A DNA stretch of 64,000 nt from Escherichia coli (lineage in GTDB: Bacteria > Pseudomonadota > Gammaproteobacteria > Enterobacterales > Enterobacteriaceae), in the NCBI RefSeq assembly GCF_044324785.1, contig NZ_CP172127.1. One strand, written 5' to 3'. A program made the position numbers and the translations under genes. Below, one piece after another: positions 1 through 41,462 of this stretch. The notes beneath the pieces were generated by a model. The model was not told the DNA's origin, did no database searches, and saw only the letters and a list, made by a program, of their open reading frames with translations. Each line of letters begins with the position of its first letter. The stretch's first letter is position 1.

Positions 1-821
1 TGAATCAGCATGGATTTTCCCCTTCCCGCTCTGCGCGCGCTATGCGTGGGCAAAGCGATAAAGTGGTCGCCATCATTGTTACCCGTCTGGATTCGTTGTC
101 AGAAAATCTCGCCGTTCAAACCATGCTGCCAGCGTTCTATGAACAAGGTTACGATCCAATCATGATGGAAAGTCAGTTTTCCCCACAATTAGTTGCCGAA
201 CATTTGGGGGTGCTGAAACGGCGTAATATCGACGGCGTAGTGCTGTTCGGTTTTACCGGCATAACAGAAGAAATGTTAGCCCACTGGCAGTCATCGCTGG
301 TTCTGCTGGCGCGTGACGCAAAAGGCTTTGCTTCGGTCTGTTATGACGACGAAGGGGCAATCAAGATCCTGATGCAACGGCTGTATGACCAGGGGCATCG
401 TAATATCAGTTATCTCGGCGTGCCGCATAGTGACGTGACGACCGGTAAGCGACGTCACGAAGCCTACCTGGCGTTCTGCAAAGCGCATAAACTGCATCCC
501 GTTGCCGCTCTGCCAGGCCTTGCTATGAAGCAAGGCTATGAGAACGTAGCAAAAGTGATTACGCCTGAAACTACCGCGTTACTGTGCGCAACCGACACGC
601 TGGCACTTGGTGCAAGTAAATACCTGCAAGAGCAACGCATCGACACCTTGCAACTGGCGAGCGTCGGTAATACACCGTTAATGAAATTCCTCCATCCGGA
701 GATCGTCACCGTAGATCCCGGTTACGCCGAAGCTGGACGCCAGGCGGCCTGCCAGTTGATCGCGCAGGTAACCGGGCGCAGCGAACCGCAACAAATCATC
801 ATCCCCGCCACCCTGTCCTGA
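1..821 (+). CDS. treR: Trehalose operon repressor TreR (LacI/GalR family), 5' end truncated by window edge
   Basis: Frame is open from window start; translation ...NQHGFSPSRSARAMRGQSDKVVAIIVTRLDS... matches the ligand-binding domain of TreR as remembered; followed by treBC. Confidence 0.9.
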   Translation, partial: NQHGFSPSRSARAMRGQSDKVVAIIVTRLDSLSENLAVQTMLPAFYEQGYDPIMMESQFSPQLVAEHLGVLKRRNIDGVVLFGFTGITEEMLAHWQSSLVLLARDAKGFASVCYDDEGAIKILMQRLYDQGHRNISYLGVPHSDVTTGKRRHEAYLAFCKAHKLHPVAALPGLAMKQGYENVAKVITPETTALLCATDTLALGASKYLQEQRIDTLQLASVGNTPLMKFLHPEIVTVDPGYAEAGRQAACQLIAQVTGRSEPQQIIIPATLS

Positions 822-860
822 TCGTTTCCTGAACGATAAATTGTGATCTTCGCTGCGTTT

Positions 861-874
861 CGGGAACGTTCCCG
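861..874. promoter_or_regulatory. Perfect 14-bp palindrome CGGGAACGTTCCCG upstream of treB; candidate TreR operator
   Basis: Palindrome read directly in treR-treB spacer; a second inverted repeat ATCGTT-N5-AACGAT lies at about 821-837. Confidence 0.5.
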
Positions 875-939
875 TTTTTAAATTTTTCCGCGCAATATAT
901 TCTGCAGCCAACCAAAAATGTCATCTGCCATGGGGCTTT

Positions 940-2361
940 ATGATGAGCAAAATAAACCAAACGGATATCGATCGGTTGATTGAACTGGTCGGCGGGCGCG
1001 GCAATATTGCGACGGTGAGCCACTGTATTACTCGTCTGCGCTTTGTCCTCAACCAACCGGCCAATGCCAGACCGAAAGAAATTGAGCAACTCCCCATGGT
1101 GAAAGGCTGTTTCACCAATGCCGGGCAATTTCAGGTGGTGATTGGCACCAACGTGGGTGATTACTATCAAGCACTGATAGCGTCAACCGGACAGGCGCAG
1201 GTTGATAAAGAGCAGGTAAAAAAAGCCGCCCGGCAGAATATGAAATGGCATGAGCAGTTGATCTCTCATTTCGCGGAGATCTTCTTCCCGTTGCTGCCCG
1301 CGTTGATTAGTGGTGGTTTGATCCTCGGTTTTCGCAATGTGATCGGCGATTTGCCCATGAGCAACGGTCAGACGCTGGCGCAAATGTACCCTTCCCTGCA
1401 AACGATCTACGATTTTCTGTGGTTGATCGGTGAAGCGATCTTCTTCTACCTGCCGGTCGGGATTTGCTGGTCAGCGGTGAAAAAAATGGGCGGCACGCCG
1501 ATCCTTGGTATCGTGCTTGGCGTAACGCTGGTTTCTCCACAGCTGATGAACGCTTATCTGCTCGGGCAGCAGCTGCCGGAAGTGTGGGACTTTGGCATGT
1601 TCAGCATCGCCAAAGTGGGCTATCAGGCGCAGGTGATCCCGGCACTGTTAGCCGGGCTGGCGCTGGGCGTTATTGAAACTCGCCTTAAACGCATCGTGCC
1701 GGATTACCTCTATCTGGTGGTGGTGCCCGTCTGTTCGCTGATCCTCGCGGTGTTCCTCGCCCATGCGCTGATTGGTCCGTTTGGTCGCATGATTGGCGAT
1801 GGCGTTGCCTTTGCGGTACGTCACCTGATGACCGGCAGCTTTGCTCCGATTGGCGCGGCATTGTTTGGCTTCCTGTACGCCCCGCTGGTGATCACGGGCG
1901 TACACCAGACCACGCTTGCTATTGATTTGCAGATGATTCAAAGCATGGGTGGCACGCCAGTGTGGCCGCTGATTGCGCTGTCGAATATCGCTCAGGGTTC
2001 CGCCGTGATAGGCATTATCATTTCCAGCCGCAAGCACAATGAACGCGAGATCTCCGTGCCTGCTGCAATCTCCGCCTGGCTTGGGGTCACTGAGCCTGCA
2101 ATGTACGGCATCAACCTGAAATATCGCTTCCCGATGCTGTGCGCGATGATTGGTTCTGGTCTGGCAGGATTGCTTTGCGGCCTGAACGGCGTTATGGCGA
2201 ATGGCATCGGCGTAGGCGGCCTGCCGGGAATTCTCTCGATTCAACCGAGCTACTGGCAGGTGTTTGCGCTGGCAATGGCTATCGCCATCATCATCCCGAT
2301 TGTACTCACCTCGTTTATCTATCAGCGGAAATACCGTCTGGGCACGCTGGACATTGTTTAA
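940..2361 (+). CDS. treB: PTS trehalose-specific EIIBC component
   Basis: 473 aa, N-term MMSKINQTDIDRLIELVGGRGNIATVSHCITRLRF (EIIB Cys motif) then polytopic membrane domain; ATG at 940. Confidence 0.9.
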   Translation: MMSKINQTDIDRLIELVGGRGNIATVSHCITRLRFVLNQPANARPKEIEQLPMVKGCFTNAGQFQVVIGTNVGDYYQALIASTGQAQVDKEQVKKAARQNMKWHEQLISHFAEIFFPLLPALISGGLILGFRNVIGDLPMSNGQTLAQMYPSLQTIYDFLWLIGEAIFFYLPVGICWSAVKKMGGTPILGIVLGVTLVSPQLMNAYLLGQQLPEVWDFGMFSIAKVGYQAQVIPALLAGLALGVIETRLKRIVPDYLYLVVVPVCSLILAVFLAHALIGPFGRMIGDGVAFAVRHLMTGSFAPIGAALFGFLYAPLVITGVHQTTLAIDLQMIQSMGGTPVWPLIALSNIAQGSAVIGIIISSRKHNEREISVPAAISAWLGVTEPAMYGINLKYRFPMLCAMIGSGLAGLLCGLNGVMANGIGVGGLPGILSIQPSYWQVFALAMAIAIIIPIVLTSFIYQRKYRLGTLDIV

Positions 2362-2410
2362 TTTTCTTCGGGGCGCAATTGCGCCCCCTCGCATTTGCAG
2401 GAATAACGTA

Positions 2411-4066
2411 ATGACTAATCTTCCCCACTGGTGGCAAAACGGCGTTATCTACCAGATTTATCCAAAGAGTTTTCAGGACACCACGGGTAGCGGCACCGGC
2501 GATTTACGTGGCGTTATCCAGCGCCTGGACTATCTGCATAAACTGGGCGTTGATGCCATCTGGCTAACCCCCTTTTATGTCTCTCCCCAGGTCGATAACG
2601 GTTACGACGTAGCGAACTATACGGCGATTGATCCCACCTACGGCACACTGGACGATTTTGACGAACTGGTGACACAGGCAAAATCTCGCGGGATTCGTAT
2701 CATTCTCGATATGGTGTTTAACCATACCTCTACCCAACATGCCTGGTTTCGTGAGGCGCTGAACAAAGCAAGCCCTTACCGCCAGTTTTATATCTGGCGC
2801 GATGGAGAACCAGAAACACCACCGAACAACTGGCGTTCAAAATTTGGCGGTAGCGCGTGGCGCTGGCATGCGGAAAGCGAACAGTACTATTTGCATCTCT
2901 TTGCACCAGAACAGGCGGATCTCAACTGGGAGAATCCAGCGGTACGCGCAGAGCTGAAAAAAGTCTGTGAGTTCTGGGCCGATCGTGGGGTCGACGGGTT
3001 GCGCCTGGATGTGGTGAATCTGATCTCCAAAGACCCGCGTTTCCCTGATGACCTGGATGGCGACGGGCGTCGCTTCTACACCGACGGGCCACGAGCACAC
3101 GAGTTTTTGCACGAGATGAACCGCGATGTGTTTACGCCGCGCGGGTTAATGACCGTAGGTGAAATGTCCTCCACCAGCCTTGAGCATTGCCAGCGATATG
3201 CGGCACTGACAGGCAGTGAATTGTCGATGACCTTTAATTTTCATCACCTGAAAGTCGATTATCCCGGTGGTGAAAAATGGACGCTGGCTAAACCTGACTT
3301 TGTGGCGTTGAAAACATTGTTCCGCCACTGGCAACAAGGAATGCACAACGTGGCATGGAATGCCTTGTTCTGGTGTAACCACGATCAGCCGCGCATTGTT
3401 TCTCGCTTTGGTGATGAAGGTGAATACCGCGTGCCTGCGGCAAAAATGCTGGCGATGGTGCTGCATGGCATGCAGGGAACGCCATATATCTACCAGGGCG
3501 AAGAGATTGGCATGACTAACCCACATTTCACGCGCATTACTGACTATCGCGACGTGGAGAGCCTCAATATGTTTGCCGAGCTGCGCAACGATGGGCGTGA
3601 TGCCGACGAGTTATTGGCAATCCTCGCCAGTAAATCCCGTGACAACAGTCGCACACCCATGCAATGGAGCAACGGCGATAATGCCGGGTTTACGGCTGGC
3701 GAACCGTGGATTGGCCTGGGCGATAACTATCAACAAATCAACGTAGAAGCAGCGCTGGCCGATGAGTCCTCGGTGTTTTACACCTACCAAAAGTTAATCG
3801 CACTGCGTAAGCAAGAAGCCGTCCTGACATGGGGCGATTACCAGGATCTGCTGCCAAACAGCCCTGTATTGTGGTGCTATCGCCGTGAGTGGAAGGGGCA
3901 AACCTTGCTGGTCATTGCCAACCTTAGCCGTGAGACCCAACCCTGGCAGCCAGGGAAAATGCTCGGCAACTGGCAGCTTGTGATGCATAACTACGAAGAA
4001 GCCTCACCACAACCCTGTGCCATGACTTTACGGCCTTTTGAGGCTGTCTGGTGGTTACAGAAGTAA
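2411..4066 (+). CDS. treC: Trehalose-6-phosphate hydrolase (GH13 alpha-glucosidase)
   Basis: 551 aa from internal ATG (MTNLPHWWQNGVIYQIYPKSF...), GH13 motifs (DGLRLDVV, FNHT); longer ORF-track start at 2264 overlaps treB and is rejected. Confidence 0.9.
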   Translation: MTNLPHWWQNGVIYQIYPKSFQDTTGSGTGDLRGVIQRLDYLHKLGVDAIWLTPFYVSPQVDNGYDVANYTAIDPTYGTLDDFDELVTQAKSRGIRIILDMVFNHTSTQHAWFREALNKASPYRQFYIWRDGEPETPPNNWRSKFGGSAWRWHAESEQYYLHLFAPEQADLNWENPAVRAELKKVCEFWADRGVDGLRLDVVNLISKDPRFPDDLDGDGRRFYTDGPRAHEFLHEMNRDVFTPRGLMTVGEMSSTSLEHCQRYAALTGSELSMTFNFHHLKVDYPGGEKWTLAKPDFVALKTLFRHWQQGMHNVAWNALFWCNHDQPRIVSRFGDEGEYRVPAAKMLAMVLHGMQGTPYIYQGEEIGMTNPHFTRITDYRDVESLNMFAELRNDGRDADELLAILASKSRDNSRTPMQWSNGDNAGFTAGEPWIGLGDNYQQINVEAALADESSVFYTYQKLIALRKQEAVLTWGDYQDLLPNSPVLWCYRREWKGQTLLVIANLSRETQPWQPGKMLGNWQLVMHNYEEASPQPCAMTLRPFEAVWWLQK

Positions 4067-4078
4067 ATCTTCCCTAAG

Positions 4079-4108
4079 CCCCGGTAATGCCGATCATTCC
4101 GGGGTTTT
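4079..4108 (+). terminator. Rho-independent terminator after treC
   Basis: CCCCGG...CCGGGG stem followed by TTTT immediately after treC stop. Confidence 0.5.
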
Positions 4109-4239
4109 GTCTGTCAGTATGTTGTTTTTGTTGATTTTTCAACCAGCAAATTCATTAAAAAATTTACATAACGCTGTAGCGCCCGTCATCCGTACGCTCT
4201 GCTTTTTACTTTGAGCTACATCAAAAAAAGTTAAAACAT

Positions 4240-4330
4240 CCTTGATGCAAAGCACTATATATAGACTTTAAAATGCGTCCCAACCCAATATGTTGTATTA
4301 ATCGACTATAATTGCTACTACAGCTCCCCA
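4240..4330 (+). promoter_or_regulatory. nrdDG promoter region with two AT-rich near-palindromes (candidate NrdR boxes)
   Basis: cactatatatagac and ccaatatgttgtatt about 30 bp apart upstream of nrdD; assignment by resemblance to NrdR box consensus from memory. Confidence 0.3.
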
Positions 4331-4459
4331 CGAAAAAGGTGCGGCGTTGTGGATAAGCGGATGGCGATTGCGGAAAGCACCGGAAAACGAAACAAAAAAA
4401 CCGGAAAACGCCTTTCCCAATTTCTGTGGATAACCTGTTCTTAAAAATATGGAGCGATC

Positions 4460-6598
4460 ATGACACCGCATGTGATGAAACGAGACGGCTGCAAAGTGCC
4501 GTTTAAATCAGAGCGCATCAAAGAAGCGATTCTGCGTGCAGCTAAAGCAGCGGAAGTCGATGATGCCGATTATTGCGCCACTGTTGCTGCGGTTGTCAGC
4601 GAGCAGATGCAGGGCCGCAACCAGGTGGATATCAATGAGATCCAGACCGCAGTTGAAAACCAGCTGATGTCGGGTCCATACAAACAACTGGCTCGTGCTT
4701 ACATCGAGTACCGTCACGATCGCGACATTGAACGTGAAAAACGCGGTCGCCTGAACCAGGAAATCCGTGGTCTGGTCGAGCAGACCAACTCCTCGTTGCT
4801 CAACGAAAACGCCAACAAAGACAGCAAGGTGATTCCAACCCAGCGCGACCTGCTGGCCGGGATCGTGGCTAAACACTATGCACGCCAGCACCTGCTGCCG
4901 CGTGACGTGGTGCAGGCACATGAGCGTGGCGATATTCACTATCACGATCTCGATTACTCACCGTTCTTCCCGATGTTCAATTGCATGTTGATCGACCTGA
5001 AAGGCATGCTGACCCAGGGCTTTAAGATGGGGAACGCCGAGATTGAACCGCCGAAGTCGATCTCTACGGCAACCGCTGTAACTGCGCAGATTATTGCTCA
5101 GGTCGCCAGCCATATTTATGGCGGCACCACCATTAACCGTATCGATGAAGTGCTGGCACCGTTTGTCACCGCCAGCTACAACAAACATCGCAAGACCGCA
5201 GAAGAGTGGAACATCCCGGACGCCGAAGGCTACGCTAACTCTCGAACCATCAAAGAGTGCTACGATGCCTTCCAGTCGCTGGAGTACGAAGTAAACACCC
5301 TGCACACCGCCAACGGTCAAACACCGTTTGTGACCTTTGGTTTTGGTCTGGGCACCAGCTGGGAGTCGCGCCTGATTCAGGAATCTATCCTGCGTAACCG
5401 TATCGCAGGCCTCGGTAAAAACCGTAAAACTGCGGTGTTCCCGAAACTGGTGTTTGCGATTCGCGATGGCCTAAACCATAAAAAAGGCGATCCGAACTAC
5501 GACATCAAACAGCTGGCGCTGGAGTGCGCAAGCAAGCGCATGTATCCGGATATCCTGAACTACGATCAGGTAGTGAAAGTCACCGGTTCGTTTAAAACCC
5601 CGATGGGCTGCCGCAGCTTCCTCGGCGTGTGGGAAAATGAAAACGGCGAGCAGATCCACGATGGTCGTAACAACCTCGGCGTGATCAGCCTGAACCTGCC
5701 GCGTATTGCTCTGGAGGCAAAAGGCGATGAAGCCACCTTCTGGAAGCTGCTGGATGAACGTCTGGTGCTGGCACGTAAGGCGCTGATGACCCGTATCGCC
5801 CGTCTGGAAGGCGTGAAGGCACGCGTAGCTCCTATCCTCTATATGGAAGGTGCTTGTGGCGTGCGTCTGAATGCTGACGATGATGTTTCTGAAATCTTCA
5901 AAAACGGTCGTGCGTCTATTTCGCTGGGCTACATCGGCATCCACGAAACCATTAACGCGCTGTTCGGCGGCGAGCATGTTTACGACAACGAGCAGCTTCG
6001 CGCGAAAGGTATCGCGATTGTTGAACGTCTGCGTCAGGCGGTGGATCAGTGGAAAGAAGAAACGGGTTATGGTTTCAGTCTCTACAGCACGCCAAGTGAA
6101 AACCTGTGCGACCGCTTCTGCCGTCTCGATACCGCTGAGTTTGGCGTGGTGCCGGGCGTGACCGATAAAGGTTACTACACCAACAGTTTCCACCTTGATG
6201 TGGAGAAAAAGGTGAACCCGTATGACAAGATCGACTTTGAAGCGCCTTACCCGCCGCTGGCGAACGGTGGTTTCATTTGCTACGGCGAGTATCCAAACAT
6301 TCAGCACAACCTGAAGGCGCTGGAAGATGTCTGGGATTACAGCTATCAGCATGTACCGTATTACGGCACCAATACGCCGATCGATGAGTGCTACGAGTGT
6401 GGCTTTACTGGCGAGTTCGAGTGCACCAGCAAAGGCTTCACTTGCCCGAAATGTGGTAACCATGACGCCTCCCGTGTGTCGGTGACTCGCCGCGTGTGCG
6501 GATATTTAGGTAGCCCGGATGCACGTCCGTTTAACGCCGGTAAGCAGGAAGAAGTTAAGCGCCGCGTTAAACATTTGGGAAATGGGCAGATCGGTTAA
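4460..6598 (+). CDS. nrdD: Anaerobic ribonucleoside-triphosphate reductase (class III RNR)
   Basis: 712 aa; ATP-cone N-terminus, C-terminal Zn-ribbon CxxC...CxxC and glycyl-radical region (RVCGYLG). Confidence 0.92.
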   Translation: MTPHVMKRDGCKVPFKSERIKEAILRAAKAAEVDDADYCATVAAVVSEQMQGRNQVDINEIQTAVENQLMSGPYKQLARAYIEYRHDRDIEREKRGRLNQEIRGLVEQTNSSLLNENANKDSKVIPTQRDLLAGIVAKHYARQHLLPRDVVQAHERGDIHYHDLDYSPFFPMFNCMLIDLKGMLTQGFKMGNAEIEPPKSISTATAVTAQIIAQVASHIYGGTTINRIDEVLAPFVTASYNKHRKTAEEWNIPDAEGYANSRTIKECYDAFQSLEYEVNTLHTANGQTPFVTFGFGLGTSWESRLIQESILRNRIAGLGKNRKTAVFPKLVFAIRDGLNHKKGDPNYDIKQLALECASKRMYPDILNYDQVVKVTGSFKTPMGCRSFLGVWENENGEQIHDGRNNLGVISLNLPRIALEAKGDEATFWKLLDERLVLARKALMTRIARLEGVKARVAPILYMEGACGVRLNADDDVSEIFKNGRASISLGYIGIHETINALFGGEHVYDNEQLRAKGIAIVERLRQAVDQWKEETGYGFSLYSTPSENLCDRFCRLDTAEFGVVPGVTDKGYYTNSFHLDVEKKVNPYDKIDFEAPYPPLANGGFICYGEYPNIQHNLKALEDVWDYSYQHVPYYGTNTPIDECYECGFTGEFECTSKGFTCPKCGNHDASRVSVTRRVCGYLGSPDARPFNAGKQEEVKRRVKHLGNGQIG

Positions 6599-6619
6599 TC
6601 TTCACTCTGCGTTAAGCAA

Positions 6620-6746
<127 letters not shown>

Positions 6747-6755
6747 GGCGAAATA

Positions 6756-7220
6756 ATGAATTATCATCAGTACTATCCTGTCGACATCGTCAACGGCCCC
6801 GGCACTCGCTGTACCCTGTTTGTCTCCGGGTGTGTTCATGAATGCCCCGGTTGCTATAACAAAAGCACATGGCGGGTAAATTCTGGTCAGCCATTTACCA
6901 AAGCAATGGAAGACCAGATCATTAACGATCTGAATGACACTCGTATCAAACGCCAGGGGATTTCCCTCTCCGGCGGCGATCCGCTGCATCCGCAAAACGT
7001 GCCGGATATTCTGAAACTGGTACAACGCATCCGCGCCGAGTGTCCGGGTAAAGACATCTGGGTGTGGACAGGCTACAAGCTGGACGAGCTCAACGCCGCA
7101 CAAATGGAAGTGGTCGATCTCATCAACGTGCTGGTCGACGGTAAGTTTGTGCAGGATTTAAAAGACCCTTCCCTGATCTGGCGCGGCAGCAGCAATCAGG
7201 TGGTGCATCATTTGCGATGA
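6756..7220 (+). CDS. nrdG: Anaerobic RNR activating enzyme (radical SAM)
   Basis: 154 aa from internal ATG (MNYHQYYPVDIVNGPGTRCTLFVSGCVHECPGCYNK); Cys cluster typical of glycyl-radical activases. Confidence 0.88.
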   Translation: MNYHQYYPVDIVNGPGTRCTLFVSGCVHECPGCYNKSTWRVNSGQPFTKAMEDQIINDLNDTRIKRQGISLSGGDPLHPQNVPDILKLVQRIRAECPGKDIWVWTGYKLDELNAAQMEVVDLINVLVDGKFVQDLKDPSLIWRGSSNQVVHHLR

Positions 7221-7834: not shown

Positions 7835-9187
7835 TTACTGCCCGGCGATTTTCATCTCCGGCAACAGCACAGAACCACACTGTATATTACTGCGTGTTTC
7901 AATATCGTTACCGACGGTGACAATATTGCGCCACATATCTTTCAAATTACCTGCGATGGTGATTTCACTAACAGGATACTGAATTTCGCCATTCTCTACC
8001 CAGAAGCCCGCTGCACCACGGGAATAATCACCGGTAATGGCACTCACGCCCTGGCCCATTAGCTCCGTCACCACCAGCCCGGTGCCCATCTCTTTGAGCA
8101 TTTGTTCGAAGCTTAGCCCTTGTCCGGCAATCCGCCAGTTATGAATACCGCCCGCGTGCCCAGTGCTTTTCAGCCCCAGTTTCCGCGCCGAGTAGCTGGT
8201 CAGCAGCCACTGAGTCAGAATGCCATCTTTAATAATATCGCGACGCTCGGTGCGCACACCTTCGCTGTCGAATGGTGTAGATGCCAGCCCTTTCAGCAGA
8301 TGCGGATGTTCTTCAATAGTCAGCCAGTCCGGCAGAATTTGTTTACCGAGCGAGTCGAGCAAGAAGGTCGATTTACGGTAGACCGCACCACCCGCTATCG
8401 CCCCCACCAAATGACCAAACAACCCTGTTGCCACTTCATTGGCAAAAATCACCGGCGCTTTCATGGTAGAAAGTTTACGCGGTGACAGGCGCGATAAAGT
8501 GCGGCGAGCACAGTCGGCCCCGACCCACTCTGGCGTTTGCAGATCGCTCATCGCACGACCAATGGTGTAGGCGTAATCACGCTCCATATCGCCATTTTCT
8601 TCGGCAATTACACAGCTGGAGAGCGAATGACGCGTTGAGCAGTAACCCTGCAACATGCCGTGGCTGTTGCCAAAAACTTTGACACCGTAGTGGCTGTTAA
8701 AGCTGCCACCTTCGGTATTGGTGATGCGTTTATCCGCCTGCAATGCTGCCTGTTCTGCGCGGGCCGCCAGTTCAATGGCTTCATCCGGGGAAACTTCCGC
8801 AGGGTGGAACAAGTCGAGATCCGGTGCGTCAAAGGCCAGCAGCTCTTTGTCTGCCACGCCGGCACAGGGATCTGGCGAGGTATAACGGGCAATATCCAGC
8901 GCCGCCTGTACGGTGCGGGCAATGGCCTGCGGGCTTAAATCGGTAGACGATGCGCTACCTTTGCGGTTCTGGTGATAAACAGTGATCCCCAGCGCGCCAT
9001 CGCTATTAAATTCAACATTCTCCACTTCACCATAGCGCGTGCTTACGCTAATGCCGGTGGTCTTGCTGACGGCAACTTCCGCACCGTCCGATTTGCCTGA
9101 GGCCAACTCCAGCGCAGTGGAAACTGCTTCTTCCAGAATCTTGCGCTGCGCTTCAACTTGAGAGATTACTTTCATTGCAAGTGCCAT
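7835..9187 (-). CDS. pmbA: Metalloprotease PmbA/TldE
   Basis: 450 aa, PmbA/TldD fold; conserved position next to cybC. Confidence 0.9.
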
Positions 9188-9280
9188 AATGTAGAGAGTT
9201 TCTCTGAAGTCTAACAGAGAACCGTTTTTCAGTGCGCATCTTAACTGGTAACATTAGCCTCTTTTTTTAAGGAGCCTGAG

Positions 9281-9857: not shown

Positions 9858-9890
9858 TTGCCGGATACGGTGTAAACGCCTTATCCGGCA
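9858..9890. repeat. REP element between yjgA and mpl
   Basis: GCCGGATACGGTGTAAACGCCTTATCCGGC palindromic unit. Confidence 0.5.
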
Positions 9891-9914
9891 ATGCTATATC
9901 AGGCTGAGGCCGAA

Positions 9915-14512: not shown

Positions 14513-16015
14513 TTACGCCGCAATGGCGTTCATGATCGCCGGAACGGAAAGCTCTGCCAGCGGGATCTCCGCCACCTGTTTGCGATCGCGCATGATAATC
14601 ACCCGGTCGGCATAGCCCACCAGCTCTTCCAGTTCAGAGGAGATCACCAGCAGTGCCAGACCGTCAGCGCATAGCGTTTCAATCAGGCGGATGATCTCGG
14701 CATGCGCACCAACATCAATGCCGCGGGTTGGCTCATCAAGGATCAAAAATTGCGGTCGGGTCAGTAGCCAACGTGAAAGCAACACTTTTTGCTGATTGCC
14801 GCCGGAGAGAAATTCAATCGGTTGTTCAGTTGAAGGTGTGCGAATGCCAAGCTGGCGGATAAAGCGTTCGGCAATCTCTTGCTGTTCTTTGCGGGAAATC
14901 GGTCGTAACCAGCCGCGCTGGGCCTGGAGAGCGAGGATGATATTTTCCCGCACCGAGGCGGCGGCGATGATGCCATCGGTTTTCCTGTCTTCCGGGCAGA
15001 AGCCGATACCCAGTACCGAAGCCTGATGTGGCGATCGCAGGGTTTGCTGTTTGCCTTTGATCAACGCCGTGCCGCTGTCAGCAGGTTTGATACCGAAGAT
15101 CACTTCGGCGGTTTCGGTACGTCCTGATCCCAGCAAGCCTGCCAAGCCAACGATCTCGCCGGGGCGTACTTCGAGATCAAACGGTGCGATCGTTCCTTTT
15201 TTACCGTAATTTTTGAACGCGGCAACGGGTTTGTCGCTCAGCAATGTTCGTCCGGCACGCTGTAGCGCGTGGGTGTCCAGCTCGCGCCCCAGCATCATTT
15301 TTACCAGTTCGATCTGCGGTAGCTCGCGGGTTTCCCGACAGCCTACGAAACTGCCGTTGCGTAAGACGGTGATCCGATCGCTGACCTGATAGACCTGATC
15401 GAGAAAGTGAGTGACAAAGATCAGGCTGACGCCGCGATCGCGCAACTGGCGCATCAAGCCAAACAGCAACTCTACTTCCTGAGTGTCGAGGCTGGCGGTG
15501 GGTTCATCGAGGATCAGCACTTTGGCGGAGAGATCGATGGCCCGACAAATGGCGACGATTTGCTGCATCGCCACCGATAAACGGTTGAGCGGTTCCCGCA
15601 CGTCGAGGGAGAAACCATACGATGCCATCAGTTCGGTGGCGCGCTTTTCCATCTCTTTGCGGCGTAGAAGGCCGAAACGTTTGGGTTCGCGACCTATGAA
15701 TAGATTATCAGCGACCGACATATTGGGTAGCAGGTTGACTTCCTGATAGACGGTGCCGATGCCGAGTTGTTGTGCGTGGGCGGTATTTTTCGGTGAGATA
15801 GTCTGGCCTTCCAGCCAGATGGTGCCGCGATCGGCGTGGTAGACACCGGTTAATGCTTTGATTAGCGTTGATTTTCCCGCCCCGTTTTCACCGAGCAGCG
15901 CCATGATTTCACCACGGCGCAGGCTGAAATCAACGTTGTCTAACGCTTTGACACCGGGGAAAAATTTACTTAATCCTTCGGTGCGGAGGATTTCCTGGTG
16001 TTGGTTAGTATTCAT
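14513..16015 (-). CDS. ytfR: ABC transporter ATP-binding protein with two ABC domains
   Basis: 500 aa from internal ATG (MNTNQHQEIL...); two Walker A motifs (GENGAGKST, GLLGSGRT). Confidence 0.85.
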   Translation of the reverse strand: MNTNQHQEILRTEGLSKFFPGVKALDNVDFSLRRGEIMALLGENGAGKSTLIKALTGVYHADRGTIWLEGQTISPKNTAHAQQLGIGTVYQEVNLLPNMSVADNLFIGREPKRFGLLRRKEMEKRATELMASYGFSLDVREPLNRLSVAMQQIVAICRAIDLSAKVLILDEPTASLDTQEVELLFGLMRQLRDRGVSLIFVTHFLDQVYQVSDRITVLRNGSFVGCRETRELPQIELVKMMLGRELDTHALQRAGRTLLSDKPVAAFKNYGKKGTIAPFDLEVRPGEIVGLAGLLGSGRTETAEVIFGIKPADSGTALIKGKQQTLRSPHQASVLGIGFCPEDRKTDGIIAAASVRENIILALQAQRGWLRPISRKEQQEIAERFIRQLGIRTPSTEQPIEFLSGGNQQKVLLSRWLLTRPQFLILDEPTRGIDVGAHAEIIRLIETLCADGLALLVISSELEELVGYADRVIIMRDRKQVAEIPLAELSVPAIMNAIAA

Positions 16016-16037
16016 AGTTTCCCCCGTTGTAAAGCGT

Positions 16038-16145
16038 GCGCCAGATAAGACACAACAGCGTCGCATCAGGCATCTCGCACAACCGCCGGATGCGGCGTGA
16101 ATGCCTTATCCGGCGGCCCACAAGTCGGCATCAGGCATTGATGCC
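16038..16145. repeat. REP/BIME cluster between ytfR and ytfQ
   Basis: Multiple GCCGGATGCGGCG.../CGCATCAGGC palindromic units. Confidence 0.55.
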
Positions 16146-16147
16146 CC

Positions 16148-17104
16148 TCAATACCCCATGTTTTTCTTCTTCTCTAACTCTTCTTTTGCGGTATCAGGCA
16201 GGTAAAGGGTGGATTTGGTCAGGGTCAGCTTTTCAGGCATGGTGCCGTCTTTTTTGTATTTCTCCAGCGCGTCAAAAGCGGGTCCCGCCATGTTCGGCGT
16301 CAGTTCAACGCTGGCGTTCGCTTCGCCATCAATCATCGCTTTGTAGATGTCCGGCACGCCGTCGATAGAGCCTGTCAGGATATCTTTGCCCGGTTTCAGG
16401 CCCGCTTCTTTAATTGCCTGAATTGCACCAATCACCATGTCATCGTTATGGGCGTAAACCATGCAGATGTTTTTGCCGTTGTTTTCCGCTTTGATAAAGC
16501 TCTCCATGACTTCTTTGCCTTTACTGCGGGTGAAGTCACCTGACTGCGAGCGGATAATTTTGATATTTGGCGCATTCTTTATGGCTTCGGCAAAGCCTTT
16601 CTTACGGTCAATGGCGACGCTGGCCCCAACGGTGCCCTGCAGCTCCACCACGTTGCATGGTTTGCCATTCACTTCTTTTACCAGCCAGTCACCAATCAAC
16701 TTGCCTTCGAGGATGTTGTCGGCAGTGACGGTGGTCATATAGAGAGACTTGTCTTTCACATCGATGGAACGATCGAGCAAGAAGACCGGGATTTCGGCAT
16801 CTTTCGCCTCTTTTAATACCGGCTCCCAACCGGTCGCTACCACTGGAGCGATAAAGATCGCATCCACCCCTTGCGCGACGAAGGAACGTACCGCTTTAAT
16901 CTGGTTTTCCTGCTTTTGCTGACCATCGGCAATTTTCAACGTAATTCCGCGCTTTTCGGCTTCACTTTTCGCCACATTGGTTTCTGCGGCGCGCCAGCCG
17001 GATTCCGATCCGACCTGCGAAAATCCAACGGTTAATGGAGCGGCCAACGCCATAGACGACATGGCTGCCGAGACTGCAGAGACTACAAGTAAGCGTTTCC
17101 ACAT
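16148..17104 (-). CDS. ytfQ: Periplasmic sugar-binding protein (galactofuranose-binding) of the ytfQRT-yjfF ABC system
   Basis: 318 aa with signal peptide, periplasmic-binding-protein fold. Confidence 0.88.
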   Translation of the reverse strand: MWKRLLVVSAVSAAMSSMALAAPLTVGFSQVGSESGWRAAETNVAKSEAEKRGITLKIADGQQKQENQIKAVRSFVAQGVDAIFIAPVVATGWEPVLKEAKDAEIPVFLLDRSIDVKDKSLYMTTVTADNILEGKLIGDWLVKEVNGKPCNVVELQGTVGASVAIDRKKGFAEAIKNAPNIKIIRSQSGDFTRSKGKEVMESFIKAENNGKNICMVYAHNDDMVIGAIQAIKEAGLKPGKDILTGSIDGVPDIYKAMIDGEANASVELTPNMAGPAFDALEKYKKDGTMPEKLTLTKSTLYLPDTAKEELEKKKNMGY

Positions 17105-18022: not shown

Positions 18023-18373
18023 TTATTCCACCACCGCCTGCAAACGTAATAACGCCTCTTCCACCACCTCACCCGCAGCCAGACCAATACGCTTTGCCAG
18101 CCGGGCGCGTAGATCCATCATCCGCACCTGATTCACCAGCACCACGCCGTGCACATCGCCTTCTTCGCAATGTAAAGGAACGCTAAATCCGGCATAACGG
18201 GCAAAATTTCCGCCCTGCGTAATGGGGGCCACCAGCGTCATTCCCAGTTGATTAAAGGCTTGAACGGAGAGCACAAGCGCAGGTCGACCAGCACCTTGCT
18301 GTTCATGGCCGCTTGCTGGATCAAAGCCAACCAGCACAATGTCTCCCCGTTCAAATTCACTTTTCTTTACCAT
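18023..18373 (-). CDS. chpB: Toxin ChpB (MazF-family mRNA interferase)
   Basis: 116 aa PemK/MazF fold (ERGDIVLVGFDPASGHEQQGAGRPALVLS); overlaps antitoxin gene by 7 nt. Confidence 0.88.
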   Translation of the reverse strand: MVKKSEFERGDIVLVGFDPASGHEQQGAGRPALVLSVQAFNQLGMTLVAPITQGGNFARYAGFSVPLHCEEGDVHGVVLVNQVRMMDLRARLAKRIGLAAGEVVEEALLRLQAVVE

Positions 18374-18618
18374 ATTTCGTCACCCGCAGGGGTGGATTTA
18401 CCCCAGACATCCTGCTCGCTAAGTTCCGTGGCGTTCATGTCACACTGTGCCAGCAGTTCATCAAGCGAGTAGCGCCTGGAGATGGGTGTCAGAATCAGTT
18501 GATTGTTGCTCACTTGCGCCTCCACGCTCTGCCCCGGCCGTAAGTTAAGTTCTTTCATCACAACATTAGGAATGACCATACCTGAACTGTTCCCCCATCT
18601 TTTTATGGTAATACGCAT
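18367..18618 (-). CDS. chpS: Antitoxin ChpS (AbrB/MazE-type)
   Basis: 83 aa from ATG preceded by AAGGAGG RBS (MRITIKRWGNSSGMVIP...). Confidence 0.85.
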   Translation of the reverse strand: MRITIKRWGNSSGMVIPNVVMKELNLRPGQSVEAQVSNNQLILTPISRRYSLDELLAQCDMNATELSEQDVWGKSTPAGDEIW

Positions 18619-25527: not shown

Positions 25528-25573
25528 CGTTACGGGTACAAATGTAGATTGTTGATAAAGTGCGTTTTGTTTA

Positions 25574-25672
25574 TGCCGGATGCGACGTAAACGCCTTGCC
25601 AGGCCTACAAAACCCTCCAAATTCAATATATTGCAGGGACTTCGTAGGCCTGATCGGCATAGCGCATCAGGC
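25574..25672. repeat. REP elements between msrA and ytfL
   Basis: GCCGGATGCGACGTAAACGCCTTGCCAGGCCTACA and inverted partner. Confidence 0.5.
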
Positions 25673-25849
25673 AGTTTTTCATTTATCAACAGTCTGAATT
25701 TTAACCCTCTGGCGGCTTTACAGTACCTTACGCTATACTAGCCACTGAAAATGCCGGTTCACTTTCTTCGAATCGGCTTTCAATGTGTATTTCACACAAA
25801 TTAATCAACTTCCCCTTCCGAGGATCTGGCCTGAAAGGTCGGATAAGAT

Positions 25850-28400: not shown

Positions 28401-28429
28401 AATTAAGCCTCTGAGTTCTTACGCTGAAC

Positions 28430-29341
28430 TCATACTGGTAACGCTAGTTGCTTTTTTTTAAACGCCTCAATGGTCGATTTATATTTCTCGCAAATCTTTT
28501 CTTCGGTAATATCACTATCTGCGGCCAGATTCGCACTTACTATCGCATCCACTTGTTCGGCTAATTCGACTTGTTGGCAACCTGCATTAACCAGAAAATT
28601 ATAAATAAGAGAGTAATCTTCATCCTCCAAAACAACAGAGGAACCATTACGAAAACGTTCATCCCCTCCATAGATTTTAAGCGCAAAGCCCAAAGATTCT
28701 ATGACTATGGCAAAATTATCATCAATTATTTTTTCGTAAATATACCATCCATCGCATTCTTTAATTCCACCTCCTGGAATTTGGAGGTCAAATTTACCCC
28801 GTTTTAATTTACTTACTATATCATCCAATACAGCATAACCTAAAGACACGTCACCAAACGCCTGGCGAATATAACCTTTAATCCTTTCCGGTATGTCAGA
28901 CTGTTTTTTCTGCAGAATATCCCAGGCATACAATCTTCTGTTTTGTTCTAACGGAAACTCGCGGTTTTTGAAATCCATGAATGAGTTATACTCATTTATT
29001 GTTATGGGAATTTCTTCGTATTCAAATCCACTGCCTCGCAATGTCATTATATATTCGGCACCGTTATCTTTAAGGCTGAAACTGATAAGAAACTTATCCA
29101 TGGCGTTAACAGTTTCATTTTTTGATGAAAGTACCTGATAACTATTTTTATCAATCTGAGTTGCGCAACGAAAGAACTCCCGCAAAGTTAACAGGCTATC
29201 ATAATTCGAAATCCAATCTTTTTTATTAAATGCATGCTGGATATTGTTAAAAAAATTGTTTGAATGTGTTTTTGTATGCGATGATTTTACGAATAACTCC
29301 ACCGCACCAATAAAATTATTGTGTCTGATCCTGGGTAACAT
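28430..29341 (-). CDS. ytfI: Uncharacterised protein YtfI (AT-rich orphan gene)
   Basis: 303 aa, no recognisable motifs, markedly AT-rich relative to flanks; position between ytfJ and cysQ matches ytfI. Confidence 0.7.
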   Translation of the reverse strand: MLPRIRHNNFIGAVELFVKSSHTKTHSNNFFNNIQHAFNKKDWISNYDSLLTLREFFRCATQIDKNSYQVLSSKNETVNAMDKFLISFSLKDNGAEYIMTLRGSGFEYEEIPITINEYNSFMDFKNREFPLEQNRRLYAWDILQKKQSDIPERIKGYIRQAFGDVSLGYAVLDDIVSKLKRGKFDLQIPGGGIKECDGWYIYEKIIDDNFAIVIESLGFALKIYGGDERFRNGSSVVLEDEDYSLIYNFLVNAGCQQVELAEQVDAIVSANLAADSDITEEKICEKYKSTIEAFKKKQLALPV

Positions 29342-30293: not shown

Positions 30294-30482
30294 TTCTCCA
30301 CCTCGTCTCTGTGAGCGGTGTTAACTTATTGTTTTACTTATACCCTATCGTTAATGAATGCGCCAACTGTGATAGTGTCATCATTTTCAAAGCGTAAAAT
30401 TGTGGCATTCTTCACTGTTCTATAAGTAAGACGTTTATTCTCCCTTTTCTTTCGTATTCCCGATGATAAAAGGATGTCCCTG

Positions 30483-32440: not shown

Positions 32441-32552
32441 GGCCTATAAATCATCAACCGCATCCGGCACTTTTGTCGGATGCGATGCTGGCGCATCTTA
32501 TCCGTCCTACAAGCCATGCACCGTTGGCCGGATAAGCGCAGCGCATCCGGCA
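32441..32552. repeat. REP/BIME cluster between cpdB and ytfH
   Basis: Repeated GCATCCGGCA / GCCGGATAAGCGCAGCGCATCCGGCA units. Confidence 0.5.
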
Positions 32553-32553
32553 G

Positions 32554-35733: not shown

Positions 35734-35758
35734 GCTGGATGGCATTGCGCCATCCAGC
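35734..35758. terminator. Bidirectional hairpin between convergent ytfE and cycA
   Basis: GCTGGATGGC-ATTGC-GCCATCCAGC. Confidence 0.5.
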
Positions 35759-38329: not shown

Positions 38330-38968
38330 ATGCCCGGGCGCTTTGAACTAAAACCAACCCTGGAGAAAGTCTGGCACGCGCCGGACAATTTTCGCTTCAT
38401 GGACCCGCTGCCGCCGATGCATCGTCGGGGGATCATTATTGCCGCCATTGTATTGGTGGTCGGATTTCTGCTTCCATCTGATGATACGCCCAACGCGCCG
38501 GTGGTGACGCGTGAAGCGCAGTTAGATATTCAGTCGCAATCACAACCGCCGACAGAAGAACAGCTGCGGGCGCAATTAGTCACCCCACAAAATGATCCTG
38601 ATCAGGTGGCTCCGGTCGCTCCAGAACCTATACAGGAAGGCCAGCCAGAAGAGCAGCCGCAAACCACCCAAACGCAACCATTCCAGCCAGATAGCGGAAT
38701 TGATAATCAATGGCGCTCTTACCGTGTCGAACCCGGTAAAACGATGGCGCAGCTGTTCCGCGACCACGGACTGCCCGCTACCGATGTCTATGCAATGGCG
38801 CAGGTAGAAGGCGCGGGTAAGCCGCTGAGTAATTTGCAAAACGGGCAGATGGTGAAAATCCGCCAGAACGCCAGCGGCGTGGTGACGGGCTTAACCATTG
38901 ATACGGGGAATAATCAACAGGTCCTGTTTACCCGCCAGCCGGATGGCAGTTTTATTCGTGCGCGGTAG
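38330..38968 (+). CDS. ytfB: OapA/LysM-like cell-division-associated protein
   Basis: 212 aa from internal ATG ([23 protein letters not shown]...), membrane anchor, Pro/Gln-rich linker. Confidence 0.8.
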
Positions 38969-39599
38969 ATGAAGGATCAACCAAAAGCCAGCTAAGGAGC
39001 GTCTCTTTGATGACCTTACGTCTGGCTTCCAGTGCCTGGGGGGAAACCATACTGATATGATAAACTAGGCCAAGCGTATGCTGGTTGATCAAATAATATC
39101 CCCCAAGCGCAGCAATATTAATATTCACCTGCAATGGGTCGATATCTGGCTTAAAAATATTGTGTTTCTTCCCTTCATCCAATAAGGATTCCATTAACTG
39201 CAAGTGCGCATGGTTAATTTCTAAGAGACGCTGTGATTTTGCATAATGCACACCTTTACTTTGATTTTCACTATGCACAATTTTTAAAAACCAGGGGTTA
39301 GCAATATAATAATCCCATGTAAAATCAATAATTTTCTCAATGGCTTTTTGTGGCGGAAGATCTGAGAAATCAAGGGCCTTTTCTTTTTGTCGAATATCGT
39401 TCCAGGTATATTCCAGTACTTCAATAAATAAATTTTCTTTATTACCAAAGTGATGATAAACCGTCTGTTTACTACACCCCGCAGCCTTAACAATATTATC
39501 GACCCTGGCCCCTTCATAACCATATTCGGCAAATTCATTAACCGCGCATAACAGCAGCTTTTCCTTCAGGCTCTGTACGTTGCTGGTATCAAGATACAT
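38952..39599 (-). CDS. TetR/AcrR-family transcriptional regulator, divergent from the accessory operon (possibly the intact form of K-12 ytfA)
   Basis: 215 aa from ATG at 39599; N-terminal HTH ([23 protein letters not shown]); 3' end overlaps ytfB by about 17 nt. Confidence 0.8.
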
Positions 39600-39721
39600 A
39601 ACGCTTCCCCACGACCTCTTCAAGACAACTATCTTAACCCGATTAATTAGAAGCTCCAGTAAAAAGGATAAAAACTTGTACTTTCATCAAGTTATCAAAT
39701 GTCCTGTGATCACTATCGCAT

Positions 39722-39743
39722 ATCAACCAACCAGATGGTTGAT
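39722..39743. promoter_or_regulatory. Perfect inverted repeat ATCAACCA-N6-TGGTTGAT in divergent promoter region; candidate operator of the TetR regulator
   Basis: Verified against ORF-track translation of this region; a second repeat CTTGCG-N6-CGCAAG lies at about 39748-39765. Confidence 0.4.
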
Positions 39744-39809
39744 CTTTCTTGCGGCACGTCGCAAGCTAATTGTCACTTAGAAACAATATTCAAAAAAGAG
39801 AGCTATTGT

Positions 39810-40601
39810 ATGAAATCCACTCGTCCTGTTGCCGTGATTACCGGAGCCGCTCGTGGTATTGGAAAGGGCTGTGCGCTGGAGCTTGCTCGTGGCGGATTTA
39901 ACCTGCTGATTAACGATCGCCCCGATGATGACAGCGTAGAAAAATTACATGCCACGCAACAGGAATGTCTGGCAGAAGGTGTGGAAGTGATTTGCTTCCC
40001 TGCCGATGTCGGCGATCTCTCCTTGCATGAAGAGATGCTCGACGCGGCACAAAACCAGTGGGGACGTCTGGACTGCCTGCTCAACAACGCAGGCATTTCA
40101 GTGAAAAAACGCGGTGACCTTCTCGACCTCGAACCAGACAGCTTCGACCAAAATATTGCCATTAACACCCGCGCACCGTTCTTCCTCGCTCAGGCATTCA
40201 GTAAGCGCTTACTGGCACAGCCGAAACCGGAAGCAGAACTGCCGCACCGCTCGATTATTTTTGTCAGTTCCATCAACGCCATCATGCTGGCGATGAATCG
40301 CGGCGAATATACCATTGCCAAAACTGCCGTCTCTGCCGCTGCTCGTCTGTTTGCTGCTCGGCTTTGTAATGAACAAATTGGCGTTTATGAAGTGCGTCCT
40401 GGTCTCATCAAAACCGATATGACTATTCCGGCAACGGCCTATTACGACGAACTGATTGCCAAAGGTCTGGTGCCGTGGGGACGTTGGGGTTATCCGGCTG
40501 ATATTGCTTCCACTGTCCGCGCGATGGCGGAAGGTAAACTGATTTACACCTGTGGTCAGGCGGTTGCCATTGACGGCGGCTTAAGTATGCCGCGTTTCTG
40601 A
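39810..40601 (+). CDS. Short-chain dehydrogenase/reductase (classical SDR, FabG-like)
   Basis: 263 aa; TGAARGIGKG cofactor motif, NNAG, catalytic Y-x3-K (YTIAK); RBS AAAGAGAG upstream. Confidence 0.8.
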   Translation: MKSTRPVAVITGAARGIGKGCALELARGGFNLLINDRPDDDSVEKLHATQQECLAEGVEVICFPADVGDLSLHEEMLDAAQNQWGRLDCLLNNAGISVKKRGDLLDLEPDSFDQNIAINTRAPFFLAQAFSKRLLAQPKPEAELPHRSIIFVSSINAIMLAMNRGEYTIAKTAVSAAARLFAARLCNEQIGVYEVRPGLIKTDMTIPATAYYDELIAKGLVPWGRWGYPADIASTVRAMAEGKLIYTCGQAVAIDGGLSMPRF

Positions 40602-40610
40602 GGCTGAATC

Positions 40611-41453
40611 ATGAGAGATCTGTTACAACGCCCGGATTTATTCAGTATCAATACCGCGACACTGGGCTATAAAACGCCGCTTCCCGCCATTATTGATGCC
40701 TGCGCCGCACGCGGTATTGGCGCAATTGCCCCCTGGCGCAGGGAGTTGCAGGGTGAAGATCTCCAGCAAATCGCCCGCCAGCTTGCCGCCAGTAAGATGA
40801 ACGTTTCCGGTTTGTGCCGTAGCACTTACTACACCGCGCCGACACTGGCGGAACGCAAACTGGCGATTGATGATAACCGCCGGGCGCTGGACGACGCAGC
40901 GGTGCTTAACGCCGCCTGTTATATGCAGGTGGTTGGCGGGTTACCGCAGGGAACAAAAGATTTGTACGAAGCGCGGGAACAAGTAAAACAAGGGATTCGC
41001 CAGTTGCTGCCACATTCGAAAGATGTCGGCGTGCCAATTGCGCTGGAGCCGCTGCACCCGATGACTGCTGCCGACCGCTCTTGCCTGTGCACGTTACGTC
41101 AGGCGCTGGACTGGTGTGATGAACTCGATCCCGATGGTGAGTTTGGCCTCGGCGTAGCGGTAGATGTCTACCATGTCTGGTGGGACCCGGATCTCGCCAG
41201 CCAACTCCAGCGCGCCGGAAAACGCATCCTCGCGTTTCATGTTTCCGACTGGTTAGTACCAACCACCGATCTGGTCAATGACCGTGGAATGCCGGGAGAT
41301 GGCGTCATCAATATTCCGTCAATTCGTCGGCTGGTTGAAAACGCCGGATTTAATGGCGCTATTGAACTGGAAATATTCTCGCCGTACTGGTGGCAAAAAG
41401 ATATTAACAGCACGCTGGATATTAGCGTCGATCGCATCGCGCATTATTGCTAA
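40611..41453 (+). CDS. Xylose-isomerase-like TIM-barrel enzyme (sugar-phosphate isomerase/epimerase or dehydratase superfamily)
   Basis: 280 aa; conserved metal-ligand-like positions (LEPLHP, HVSDW, ELEIFS); starts 9 nt after SDR stop. Confidence 0.75.
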   Translation: MRDLLQRPDLFSINTATLGYKTPLPAIIDACAARGIGAIAPWRRELQGEDLQQIARQLAASKMNVSGLCRSTYYTAPTLAERKLAIDDNRRALDDAAVLNAACYMQVVGGLPQGTKDLYEAREQVKQGIRQLLPHSKDVGVPIALEPLHPMTAADRSCLCTLRQALDWCDELDPDGEFGLGVAVDVYHVWWDPDLASQLQRAGKRILAFHVSDWLVPTTDLVNDRGMPGDGVINIPSIRRLVENAGFNGAIELEIFSPYWWQKDINSTLDISVDRIAHYC

Positions 41454-41462
41454 GGAATGATT

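Follow-up and report, generated by a model that had tools for sequence, protein, structure and literature searches.

A BIME-2-type REP unit between ytfQ and ytfR and the REP sites of a 64-kb Escherichia coli chromosome segment

Known REP systems and the ytfQ-ytfR element

REP and BIME elements have been described since the 1980s. In the malE-malF and hisJ-hisQ operons, a REP pair lies between the gene of a binding protein and the genes of the membrane and ATPase components and acts as a stabiliser of the message (Newbury et al. 1987; Khemici & Carpousis 2004); these two papers, together with Espeli 2001, are the classical references on REP function as given in PMC12306157. The yjdM-yjdN spacer carries REP325, a BIME-2 array of six tandem copies (12 palindromic units), for which PMC4550694 gives the composition Y + Z2. 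At this locus the upstream yjdM message is stabilised and transcription is partially terminated before yjdN. The curated Rfam model naRNA4 is a REP-dimer model derived from REP325 and represents one y-linker-z2 repeat. BIME-1 is described as z1 + y with an L linker (PMC3333891). We label long Z units as z2 and short 29-nt Z units as z1, a usage inferred from PMC4550694 and PMC3333891.

We compared these systems with an element that lies within the ytfQRT-yjfF sugar-transporter operon, after ytfQ and before ytfR. The DNA analysed, here called the window, is a 64-kb segment of the E. coli chromosome, colinear in reverse orientation with K-12 MG1655 from treR to yjfJ (~4.411-4.467 Mb), with ~97% identity overall and genes that are 94-100% identical. 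A 25-kb query taken from the window is 97-98% identical to essentially all of the 5426 complete E. coli genomes. One stretch of 8.1 kb (39354-47499) has no K-12 counterpart.

Both flanking genes are encoded on the minus strand: ytfQ (16148-17104, stop at 16148-16150), for the periplasmic galactofuranose-binding protein, and ytfR (14513-16015, ATG at 16015), for the ABC ATPase. A longer ytfR reading frame in the ORF list, extending to 16066, is spurious since it runs into the REP sequence. The spacer between the two genes (16016-16147, minus strand) measures 132 nt and is orthologous to the spacer holding REP336 in K-12. The preliminary description had placed the element after ytfR, while it actually follows the ytfQ stop and precedes the ytfR ATG; the gene labels given for the other five sites are right.

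The element as a whole (16034-16145) consists of an inverted y unit, a 13-nt linker and a z2 unit, with a truncated Z arm in front. Read in the order of the mRNA, the Z 5' arm (16145-16120) is followed by the inverted y (16120-16083), the linker, z2 (16073-16034), about 12 unstructured nucleotides, the Shine-Dalgarno sequence of ytfR and its ATG. The y unit (16083-16120) is on the plus strand and inverted in the minus-strand ytfQ-ytfR mRNA; it scores 43.7 bits with R1, a covariance model built from 14 aligned REP units (see below), and aligns with naRNA4 positions 1-31. Its outer stem, GCCGGAT/ATCCGGC, can be extended to 9 bp and the GC/TT mismatch is retained, while the tail reads GGCCCA in place of CTAC and carries a 3-nt GGC insertion in comparison to K-12. 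The y hairpin is predicted at -18.0 kcal/mol in the mRNA and at -20.4 on the complementary strand. In the naRNA4 alignment, the two 5' arms are separated by the short linker at 16072-16084. The z2 unit (16034-16073, minus strand) is direct in the mRNA, scores 41.7 bits with R1 and aligns with naRNA4 positions 45-77. Its CTAC box has been removed by a 9-nt deletion relative to K-12. The inner stem of z2 still pairs in the mRNA, by way of a G-U wobble that the opposite strand lacks, and the hairpin is predicted at -16.5 kcal/mol in the mRNA as opposed to -9.5 on that strand.

The Z 5'-arm remnant (GCCTGATGCCGAC, 16120-16145, minus strand) is present in all spacer alleles examined and scores only 11.1 bits with R1. 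In the window allele it forms a 7-bp hairpin (-10.9 kcal/mol) that starts 2 nt after the ytfQ stop; this hairpin is specific to the window allele and absent in K-12. The RNA of the spacer has a predicted fold of -67.1 kcal/mol (z = -4.2), in which the ytfR Shine-Dalgarno sequence GGGGGA, ~12 nt past the z2 hairpin, remains free of pairing. On its minus strand, the spacer presents neither a sigma-70-like promoter nor an intrinsic (T-tract) terminator consensus, and no T run follows the focal hairpins; readings of the spacer as a promoter or as an intrinsic terminator were rejected on these grounds. Tandem Repeats Finder reported no tandem repeat in the spacer.

The element is one BIME-2-type unit. 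It has the inverse y(+), the z2(-) and the short 13-nt linker of BIME-2, but it is a single y-z2 pair with a Z-arm remnant, not a series of tandem copies. The block of inverted y, 13-nt linker and z2 is common to this element and REP325, and both lie between tandem genes of one operon. On the other hand, REP325 is at a different locus and has six tandem copies compared to one here, and the focal linker is identical to the naRNA4 consensus at 5 of 13 positions. Rfam naRNA4 (RF02564) matches 16039-16115 on the minus strand with 63.6 bits (gathering score 59.5, E 6.5e-9) over all 77 positions of the model. We rejected the possibility that the element is the naRNA4 gene itself, since its locus is ytfQ-ytfR whereas REP325 is at yjdM-yjdN (PMC4550694); the Rfam label at this site reflects shared REP ancestry and architecture. 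In comparison to BIME-1, the focal element has a short linker without the L motif.

REP units across the window

The preliminary description had reported REP/BIME units in six spacers. This assignment is confirmed by the consensus of the units, the Rfam naRNA4 model, their extragenic position, their high copy number and their orthology with K-12, and the units are candidates for stabilising mRNA or for binding proteins, as had also been suggested. GC-rich palindromic units were found in all six spacers, and the arms GCCKGATGCG...CTTATCMGGC occur in the sequences of all six as well. Together these spacers contain 10 well-formed REP palindromic units and 3 degenerate remnants (6713-6745, 16120-16145 and 32442-32468).

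The 10 window units were aligned with 4 units from K-12, giving the consensus GCCGGATGCGnCGC..GCGCCTTATCCGGCCTAC. The consensus of this 14-unit alignment, ATGCCGGATGCGnCGCnAGCGCCTTATCCGGCCTAC, is the classical REP consensus, the point on which the preliminary description had let its assignment depend. R1 was built from the same alignment and run over the whole window with filters off, in line with the profile scan proposed there. The ten units score 36-57 bits and their reverse-strand echoes 18-26 bits; these scores are circular, as the same units built the model, and the scan is useful because the rest of the window lacks strong matches. It revealed no additional canonical REP unit in the 64 kb, the best non-echo remainder reaching 14.5 bits.

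Apart from the focal match, naRNA4 has matches in the window, below threshold, only at four of the five remaining sites, and ES036/CssrF matches the linker of the fifth, msrA-paeA. Allowing at most one mismatch, the consensus 5' arm GCCKGATGCGRCG has 7 matches compared to 0.64 expected from shuffles; REP units account for six of them, and the one left over, with 1 mismatch, falls inside ytfR (15021-15033). The 3' arm with the CTAC pattern likewise has 7 matches, with 0.39 expected, and for either arm pattern none of 100 shuffles reached 7 matches. A two-arm scan with 3 mismatches was discarded as too permissive, as its 88 matches, many of which fell within genes, compare to ~33 in Markov simulations. 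The repeat finder grouped five sequences in one direct-repeat family and two others in a second family. Of the 5426 complete E. coli genomes, 5425 match the 87-nt focal dimer in 40 or more places each, with 206,416 chromosomal and 216 plasmid places among the matches listed. Every unit in the window is extragenic on the gene map, and within genes R1 reaches 15 bits nowhere.

REP units are imperfect palindromes of 30-40 nt, and the ten units found here fold over 29-36 nt at -7.9 to -21.4 kcal/mol; a consistent strand asymmetry of the hairpin energies across units was not found. The two-base GC/TT stem mismatch is present in both focal units and in most of the others. The CTAC box is exact in 4/10 units and reads CAAC in 2/10. 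At the focal site the GTAG/CTAC boxes are missing, the tails reading GCAC and GGCC/CCAC, which marks degenerate copies and not a different family. Neighbouring units are inverted relative to each other, a site holds three of them at most, and no array was reported by Tandem Repeats Finder. A CRISPR array was rejected for these reasons, in agreement with the preliminary description.

The density of REP sites in the window is the genome average. Six sites are seen compared to 4.9 expected in 64 kb from the 355 annotated REPs of K-12 (Poisson P(>=6) = 0.37), and calling the units dense, as had been done before, is not supported. Two of the six sites lie within operons (ytfQ-ytfR and nrdD-nrdG), three between convergent genes (yjgA/mpl, cpdB/ytfH and yjfN/aidB) and one between the tandem genes msrA and paeA. 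Both intra-operon sites are flanked by adjacent genes on the same strand, in operons known from the literature. A location between operons, the setting originally given for all of the sites, is wrong for these two.

The nrdD-nrdG spacer of the nrdDG operon (6620-6745) contains a y unit (6620-6657, plus strand), a z2 unit (6668-6707, minus strand) and a degenerate y (6713-6745), with a sub-threshold naRNA4 match. Single y units on the plus strand are found between the convergent genes yjgA and mpl (9858-9895), from R1 and the comparison with K-12, and between yjfN and aidB (58928-58965), where the tail reads CAAC in the window and CTAC in K-12. At the yjgA/mpl position, K-12, O157 and other strains have a partial y, a z2 and a y; the 73-bp difference would fit either a deletion between two y units or an insertion in the other strains. 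The convergent pair cpdB/ytfH (32441-32553) carries an atypical BIME, with a remnant (32442-32468, minus strand), a long unit (32473-32512, plus strand) and a short unit (32521-32553, minus strand) whose stem ends at 32551, 2 nt from the ytfH stop codon. One or two units are present here among the strains scanned.

The tandem msrA-paeA site (25573-25674) is of the BIME-1 type: a y unit (25573-25610, plus strand), an L linker (25609-25643) and a z1 unit (25642-25674, minus strand), with both CTAC/GTAG boxes intact. ES036/CssrF matches this 35-nt linker at 25609-25651 with 43.5 bits (gathering score 37.6), and the linker alone has a median of 12 places per genome. Its core ATTCAATATATTG fits the IHF consensus WATCAANNNNTTR at 8 of 9 specified positions. 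The site shares with BIME-1/RIB-RIP the y unit, the dispersed 35-nt linker, the short Z and the single copy (PMC3333891). A single-copy y + z1 with a long L linker was found at msrA-paeA only, and this is the one BIME-1 among the six sites. IHF sites had been suggested before for the units in general, but a putative IHF-type linker is confined to msrA-paeA.

The preliminary description omitted a hairpin between the convergent genes ytfE and cycA (35734-35758). This palindrome, GCTGGATGGC-ATTGC-GCCATCCAGC, has a perfect 10-bp stem (-19.0 kcal/mol on both strands) and is the best non-seed match of R1 at 14.5 bits. It is non-canonical, and its K-12 ortholog is REP333.

K-12 orthologs and alleles of the ytfQ-ytfR spacer

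Each of the six spacers has a REP-bearing ortholog in K-12; the names and coordinates of the K-12 REPs come from the supplement of a 2026 preprint. This supplement lists REP332 (aidB/yjfN), REP333 (ytfE/cycA), REP334 (cpdB/ytfH), REP335 (msrA to paeA) and REP336, the tandem ytfQ-to-ytfR element at 4450945-4451029; by numbering only, REP337 and REP338 would be further orthologs. Intergenic positions, flanking genes, unit types and orientations are the same as for REP332, REP334, REP335 and REP336. The spacers at nrdD-nrdG, msrA-paeA, cpdB/ytfH and yjfN/aidB are 95-99% identical to those of K-12. At yjgA/mpl, on the other hand, the window has 1 unit compared to 2 plus a partial unit in K-12, and at ytfQ-ytfR the K-12 allele has both GTAG/CTAC boxes whereas the window allele has neither.

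We scanned six other strains with R1, a comparison across strains that the preliminary description had called for. The REP positions are conserved, while copy number varies at yjgA/mpl, ytfQ-ytfR and cpdB/ytfH. A REP is present at the ytfQ-ytfR position in every strain examined, and the spacer alleles fall into three or more classes, with lengths of 132, 139 and 309 nt. The 139-nt class is that of K-12, O157, CE10 and most genomes, and its GTAG and CTAC are intact. The 132-nt class is the window allele, to which ~8% of complete genomes are at least 95% identical. The 309-nt class (NCTC8623 and 17-07187) has the arrangement y-z2-y, with an extra y unit and a boxC-like GC-rich element. In all three classes the y + z2 pair is kept in the same arrangement.

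The window spacer is ~75-77% identical to the majority (K-12-type) allele, compared to ~96% for the flanking genes. The boxes were lost by a change of GTAG to GTGG with a 3-nt insertion and by the 9-nt deletion that takes CTAC. Between spacer alleles we found no compensatory base changes; changes in the stems are single-sided and weakening, and thus give no covariation signal of selection on RNA structure. Since GTAG and the stem mismatch are needed for binding and cleavage by TnpA-REP in vitro (PMC3333891), the focal copy, having lost GTAG/CTAC, is probably immobile.

Proposed role in the ytfQRT-yjfF mRNA

We propose, with a probability of about 55%, that the focal element is an exonuclease barrier and partial attenuator that would raise the expression of ytfQ over that of ytfRT-yjfF. 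The element is transcribed within the ytfQRT-yjfF mRNA, where its two stable hairpins (~-18 and -16.5 kcal/mol) would block 3'-to-5' exonucleases, and decay intermediates ending at the REP would preserve the upstream ytfQ message. The hairpins would also cause a partial loss of transcript before ytfR, by pausing or attenuation. More binding protein would then be made in relation to the membrane and ATPase components, an outcome described for REPs of other binding-protein operons and for REP325 (yjdMN). The same logic would apply to the other five sites, each in its own context, and units between convergent genes are expected to be bidirectional 3'-end/terminator elements.

The element sits immediately behind the gene of the binding protein in an ABC transporter operon, the classical place for a stabiliser, and the REP pair is placed as in malE-malF and hisJ-hisQ. 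For ytfQRT-yjfF in K-12, DESeq2 baseMean values of 314 (ytfQ) and 137 (ytfR) per kb give a crude ratio of 2.3 (log2 1.2). This ratio goes in the expected direction but is modest, comes from an uninduced operon and may have other causes, and it weighs little. Genome-wide, tandem gene pairs with a REP (n=146) have a median log2 upstream/downstream ratio of 0.96, compared to -0.09 in controls, with a large spread (2026 preprint). The same preprint reports no overall effect of REPs on half-life.

Its supplement also contains a terminator entry with ytfQ, ytfR, ytfT and yjfF among the associated genes, which is compatible with readthrough of REP336. In the table intersecting rut peaks with REPs, the only Rho-binding peak of REP336 is antisense, which leaves Rho-dependent attenuation into ytfR without support. 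For the other K-12 elements, the 2026 preprint supplement places mapped terminator hairpins of convergent gene pairs at REP332 and REP333. At REP334 there is overlap with both a rut peak and a transcript sensitive to bicyclomycin, and REP335 has sense-strand rut peaks 35-46 bp downstream.

The lack of compensatory changes between alleles and the fast turnover of the spacer speak against the proposed role. With the spacer 23-25% diverged and the flanking genes ~4%, turnover of a selfish repeat would fit as well as a tuned regulator. It is possible, though less likely, that the element is a neutral relic, an immobilised REPIN/BIME copy left by the REP transposase (TnpA-REP/RAYT), which has stayed merely because the spacer tolerates it and has no meaningful effect on ytfQ or ytfR expression. 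This explanation agrees with the destruction of both tetranucleotide boxes in the window allele, GTAG being needed by TnpA-REP in vitro (PMC3333891), with a spacer that evolves much faster than its flanking genes into at least three allele classes without compensatory changes, with the differences in copy number among strains at three of the sites, and with an exact CTAC in only 4/10 units. It does not account equally well for the y + z2 arrangement kept in three allele classes, for a REP at this position in every strain examined, for two hairpins whose stability in the mRNA has survived the loss of those boxes, or for the upstream-biased expression that goes with tandem-gene REPs genome-wide (2026 preprint). 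These explanations and the ones that follow are not mutually exclusive with the barrier and attenuator role.

The BIME of this minority lineage may be a selfish repeat that has come free of its transposase and is turning into an operon regulator working through RNA alone, in which case the ytfQ:ytfR ratio would differ between lineages according to the allele they carry (132, 139 or 309 nt); we regard this as speculative and fairly improbable. Features that point in this direction are the hairpins kept on the mRNA strand, one of them by means of a G-U wobble, and the new small hairpin 2 nt past the ytfQ stop.

We consider it distinctly unlikely that the element acts at the level of DNA, as a DNA gyrase or HU/cruciform site, or as the source of an HU-binding naRNA4-like RNA. 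Gyrase cleavage is over-represented in BIME-2, with y units favoured (PMC6379681), and the focal element is a y + z2; the published preference for BIME-2 and y units (PMC3333891, PMC6379681) would apply mainly to the focal and nrdD-nrdG sites. However, the enrichment is reported for a subset of multi-copy BIME-2 arrays (sucC-sucB, tldD-yhdP), whereas the focal element is a single unit, and its linker has no L motif or IHF site. As for an RNA, the focal score is above the gathering threshold of naRNA4, which binds HU in vitro (PMC4550694; 2026 preprint), but naRNA4 proper is encoded at yjdM-yjdN, not at ytfQ-ytfR. REP325/naRNA4 is moreover without measurable nucleoid compaction and no REP-REP contacts are seen in Hi-C (2026 preprint), and the nucleoid-compaction model for naRNA4 is now contested.

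Finally, a hairpin within 15 nt of a stop codon could stall terminating ribosomes and, through tmRNA trans-translation, reduce the upstream protein, as REPs within 15 nt of the stop lower translation (Liang et al. 2015, as cited in PMC12306157), but in spite of the -10.9 kcal/mol remnant hairpin 2 nt after the ytfQ stop this is very unlikely here: the canonical y hairpin starts 33 nt from that stop, beyond the 15-nt limit, and the remnant hairpin is weak and allele-specific, so that such control would apply at most to ytfH, where the stem of the short unit is equally close to the stop, and not to the focal element.

The feature belongs to a textbook repeat family that is already annotated, at least four of the six sites being named K-12 REPs, and the earlier reading of it was essentially right. 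Its significance beyond a correct annotation is small: matches to 'naRNA4' and 'ES036/CssrF' of Rfam in the window denote generic REP/BIME sequences and not dedicated sRNA genes. The only local peculiarity, which is mildly interesting, is a minority allele without both GTAG/CTAC boxes, together with the allelic series of the spacer. As a natural series of 132, 139 and 309 nt, the ytfQ-ytfR spacer could serve the debate on REPs as tunable 3'-UTR and intra-operon regulators.

Orientation of the REP units and the ytfR start

The y-type units of the window, at 6622, 9860, 16085, 25575 and 58930, all lie on the plus strand (5/5), a bias that is not significant at this sample size (n=5, two-sided p ~0.06), and the three clear Z units (6668-6707, 16034-16073 and 25642-25674) all lie on the minus strand. 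The mechanical ORF list places ytfR at 14513-16066 on the minus strand, starting at an ATG at 16066 inside the z2 unit. The start annotated in related genomes corresponds to window position 16015, upstream of which lies the Shine-Dalgarno sequence GGGGGA.

Further palindromes and structured RNAs

The convergent gene pair ytfE/cycA is separated by a spacer that holds a perfect palindrome with a 10-bp stem (35734-35758). This palindrome is non-canonical and scores 14.5 bits in R1, our covariance model built from 10 window and 4 K-12 REP units. Its K-12 ortholog, REP333, is given as a mapped terminator hairpin in the supplement of a 2026 preprint. This palindrome was missing from the REP sites listed in the preliminary description.

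A second palindrome, ACCGGATAGCGTGGAG..CGCGCTATCCGGC, immediately follows ulaG (56373-56410); it has a 14-bp stem with a predicted fold of -25 kcal/mol, and GTAG comes directly after it. Its arms are similar in sequence to REP y arms, but their pairing is perfect, and it reaches just 10.8 bits in R1. Judging by the REP numbering, it carries no REP annotation in K-12.

Three Rfam families also match above their gathering scores: the ES239 sRNA in the divergent cysQ-cpdB spacer (30360-30482, minus strand), STnc450 upstream of paeA and just downstream of the BIME-1 element (25731-25788, plus strand), and the RpsF leader (49802-49886, minus strand).

Strain variation around and within the REP sites

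Gene content between the REP sites differs by strain, as seen when window 18023-18618 and 28403-29341 are compared with the related genomes L005-L007. The chpSB toxin-antitoxin pair of the window is missing from LC-1302-2020, its position is occupied by esiB in FDAARGOS_1283, and ytfI, also present in the window, is missing from three of the compared strains.

Comparison with K-12 reveals no counterpart for the 8.1 kb at 39354-47499, flanked by ytfA and yjfZ. Its six genes, all on the same strand, encode an SDR 3-ketoacyl-ACP-reductase-like protein, a protein weakly matching sugar-phosphate isomerase/epimerase families, an enoyl-CoA hydratase, a FadX-like CoA-transferase, a FAD flavoprotein of the fumarate-reductase / L-aspartate-oxidase type and a D-galactonate-type MFS transporter. 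The K-12 ytfA pseudogene is shorter than the window ORF (38952-39623, minus strand), which runs past it.

Related genomes also carry canonical REP pairs just beyond both window ends, in the ridA-mgtA spacer (about 5650-5741; L001, L004-L007) and between rnr and rlmB (9152-9253; L003).

The ytfQ-ytfR spacer itself extends to 309 nt in NCTC8623 (L005 25083-25391) and strain 17-07187 (L011 180-488), where the order y-z2-y is followed by a GC-rich element, TGTCCCCTCGCCCCTTCGGGGAGAGGGTTAGGGTGAGGGGGACA, resembling a boxC repeat. The 309-nt spacer illustrates how a BIME grows as a mosaic.
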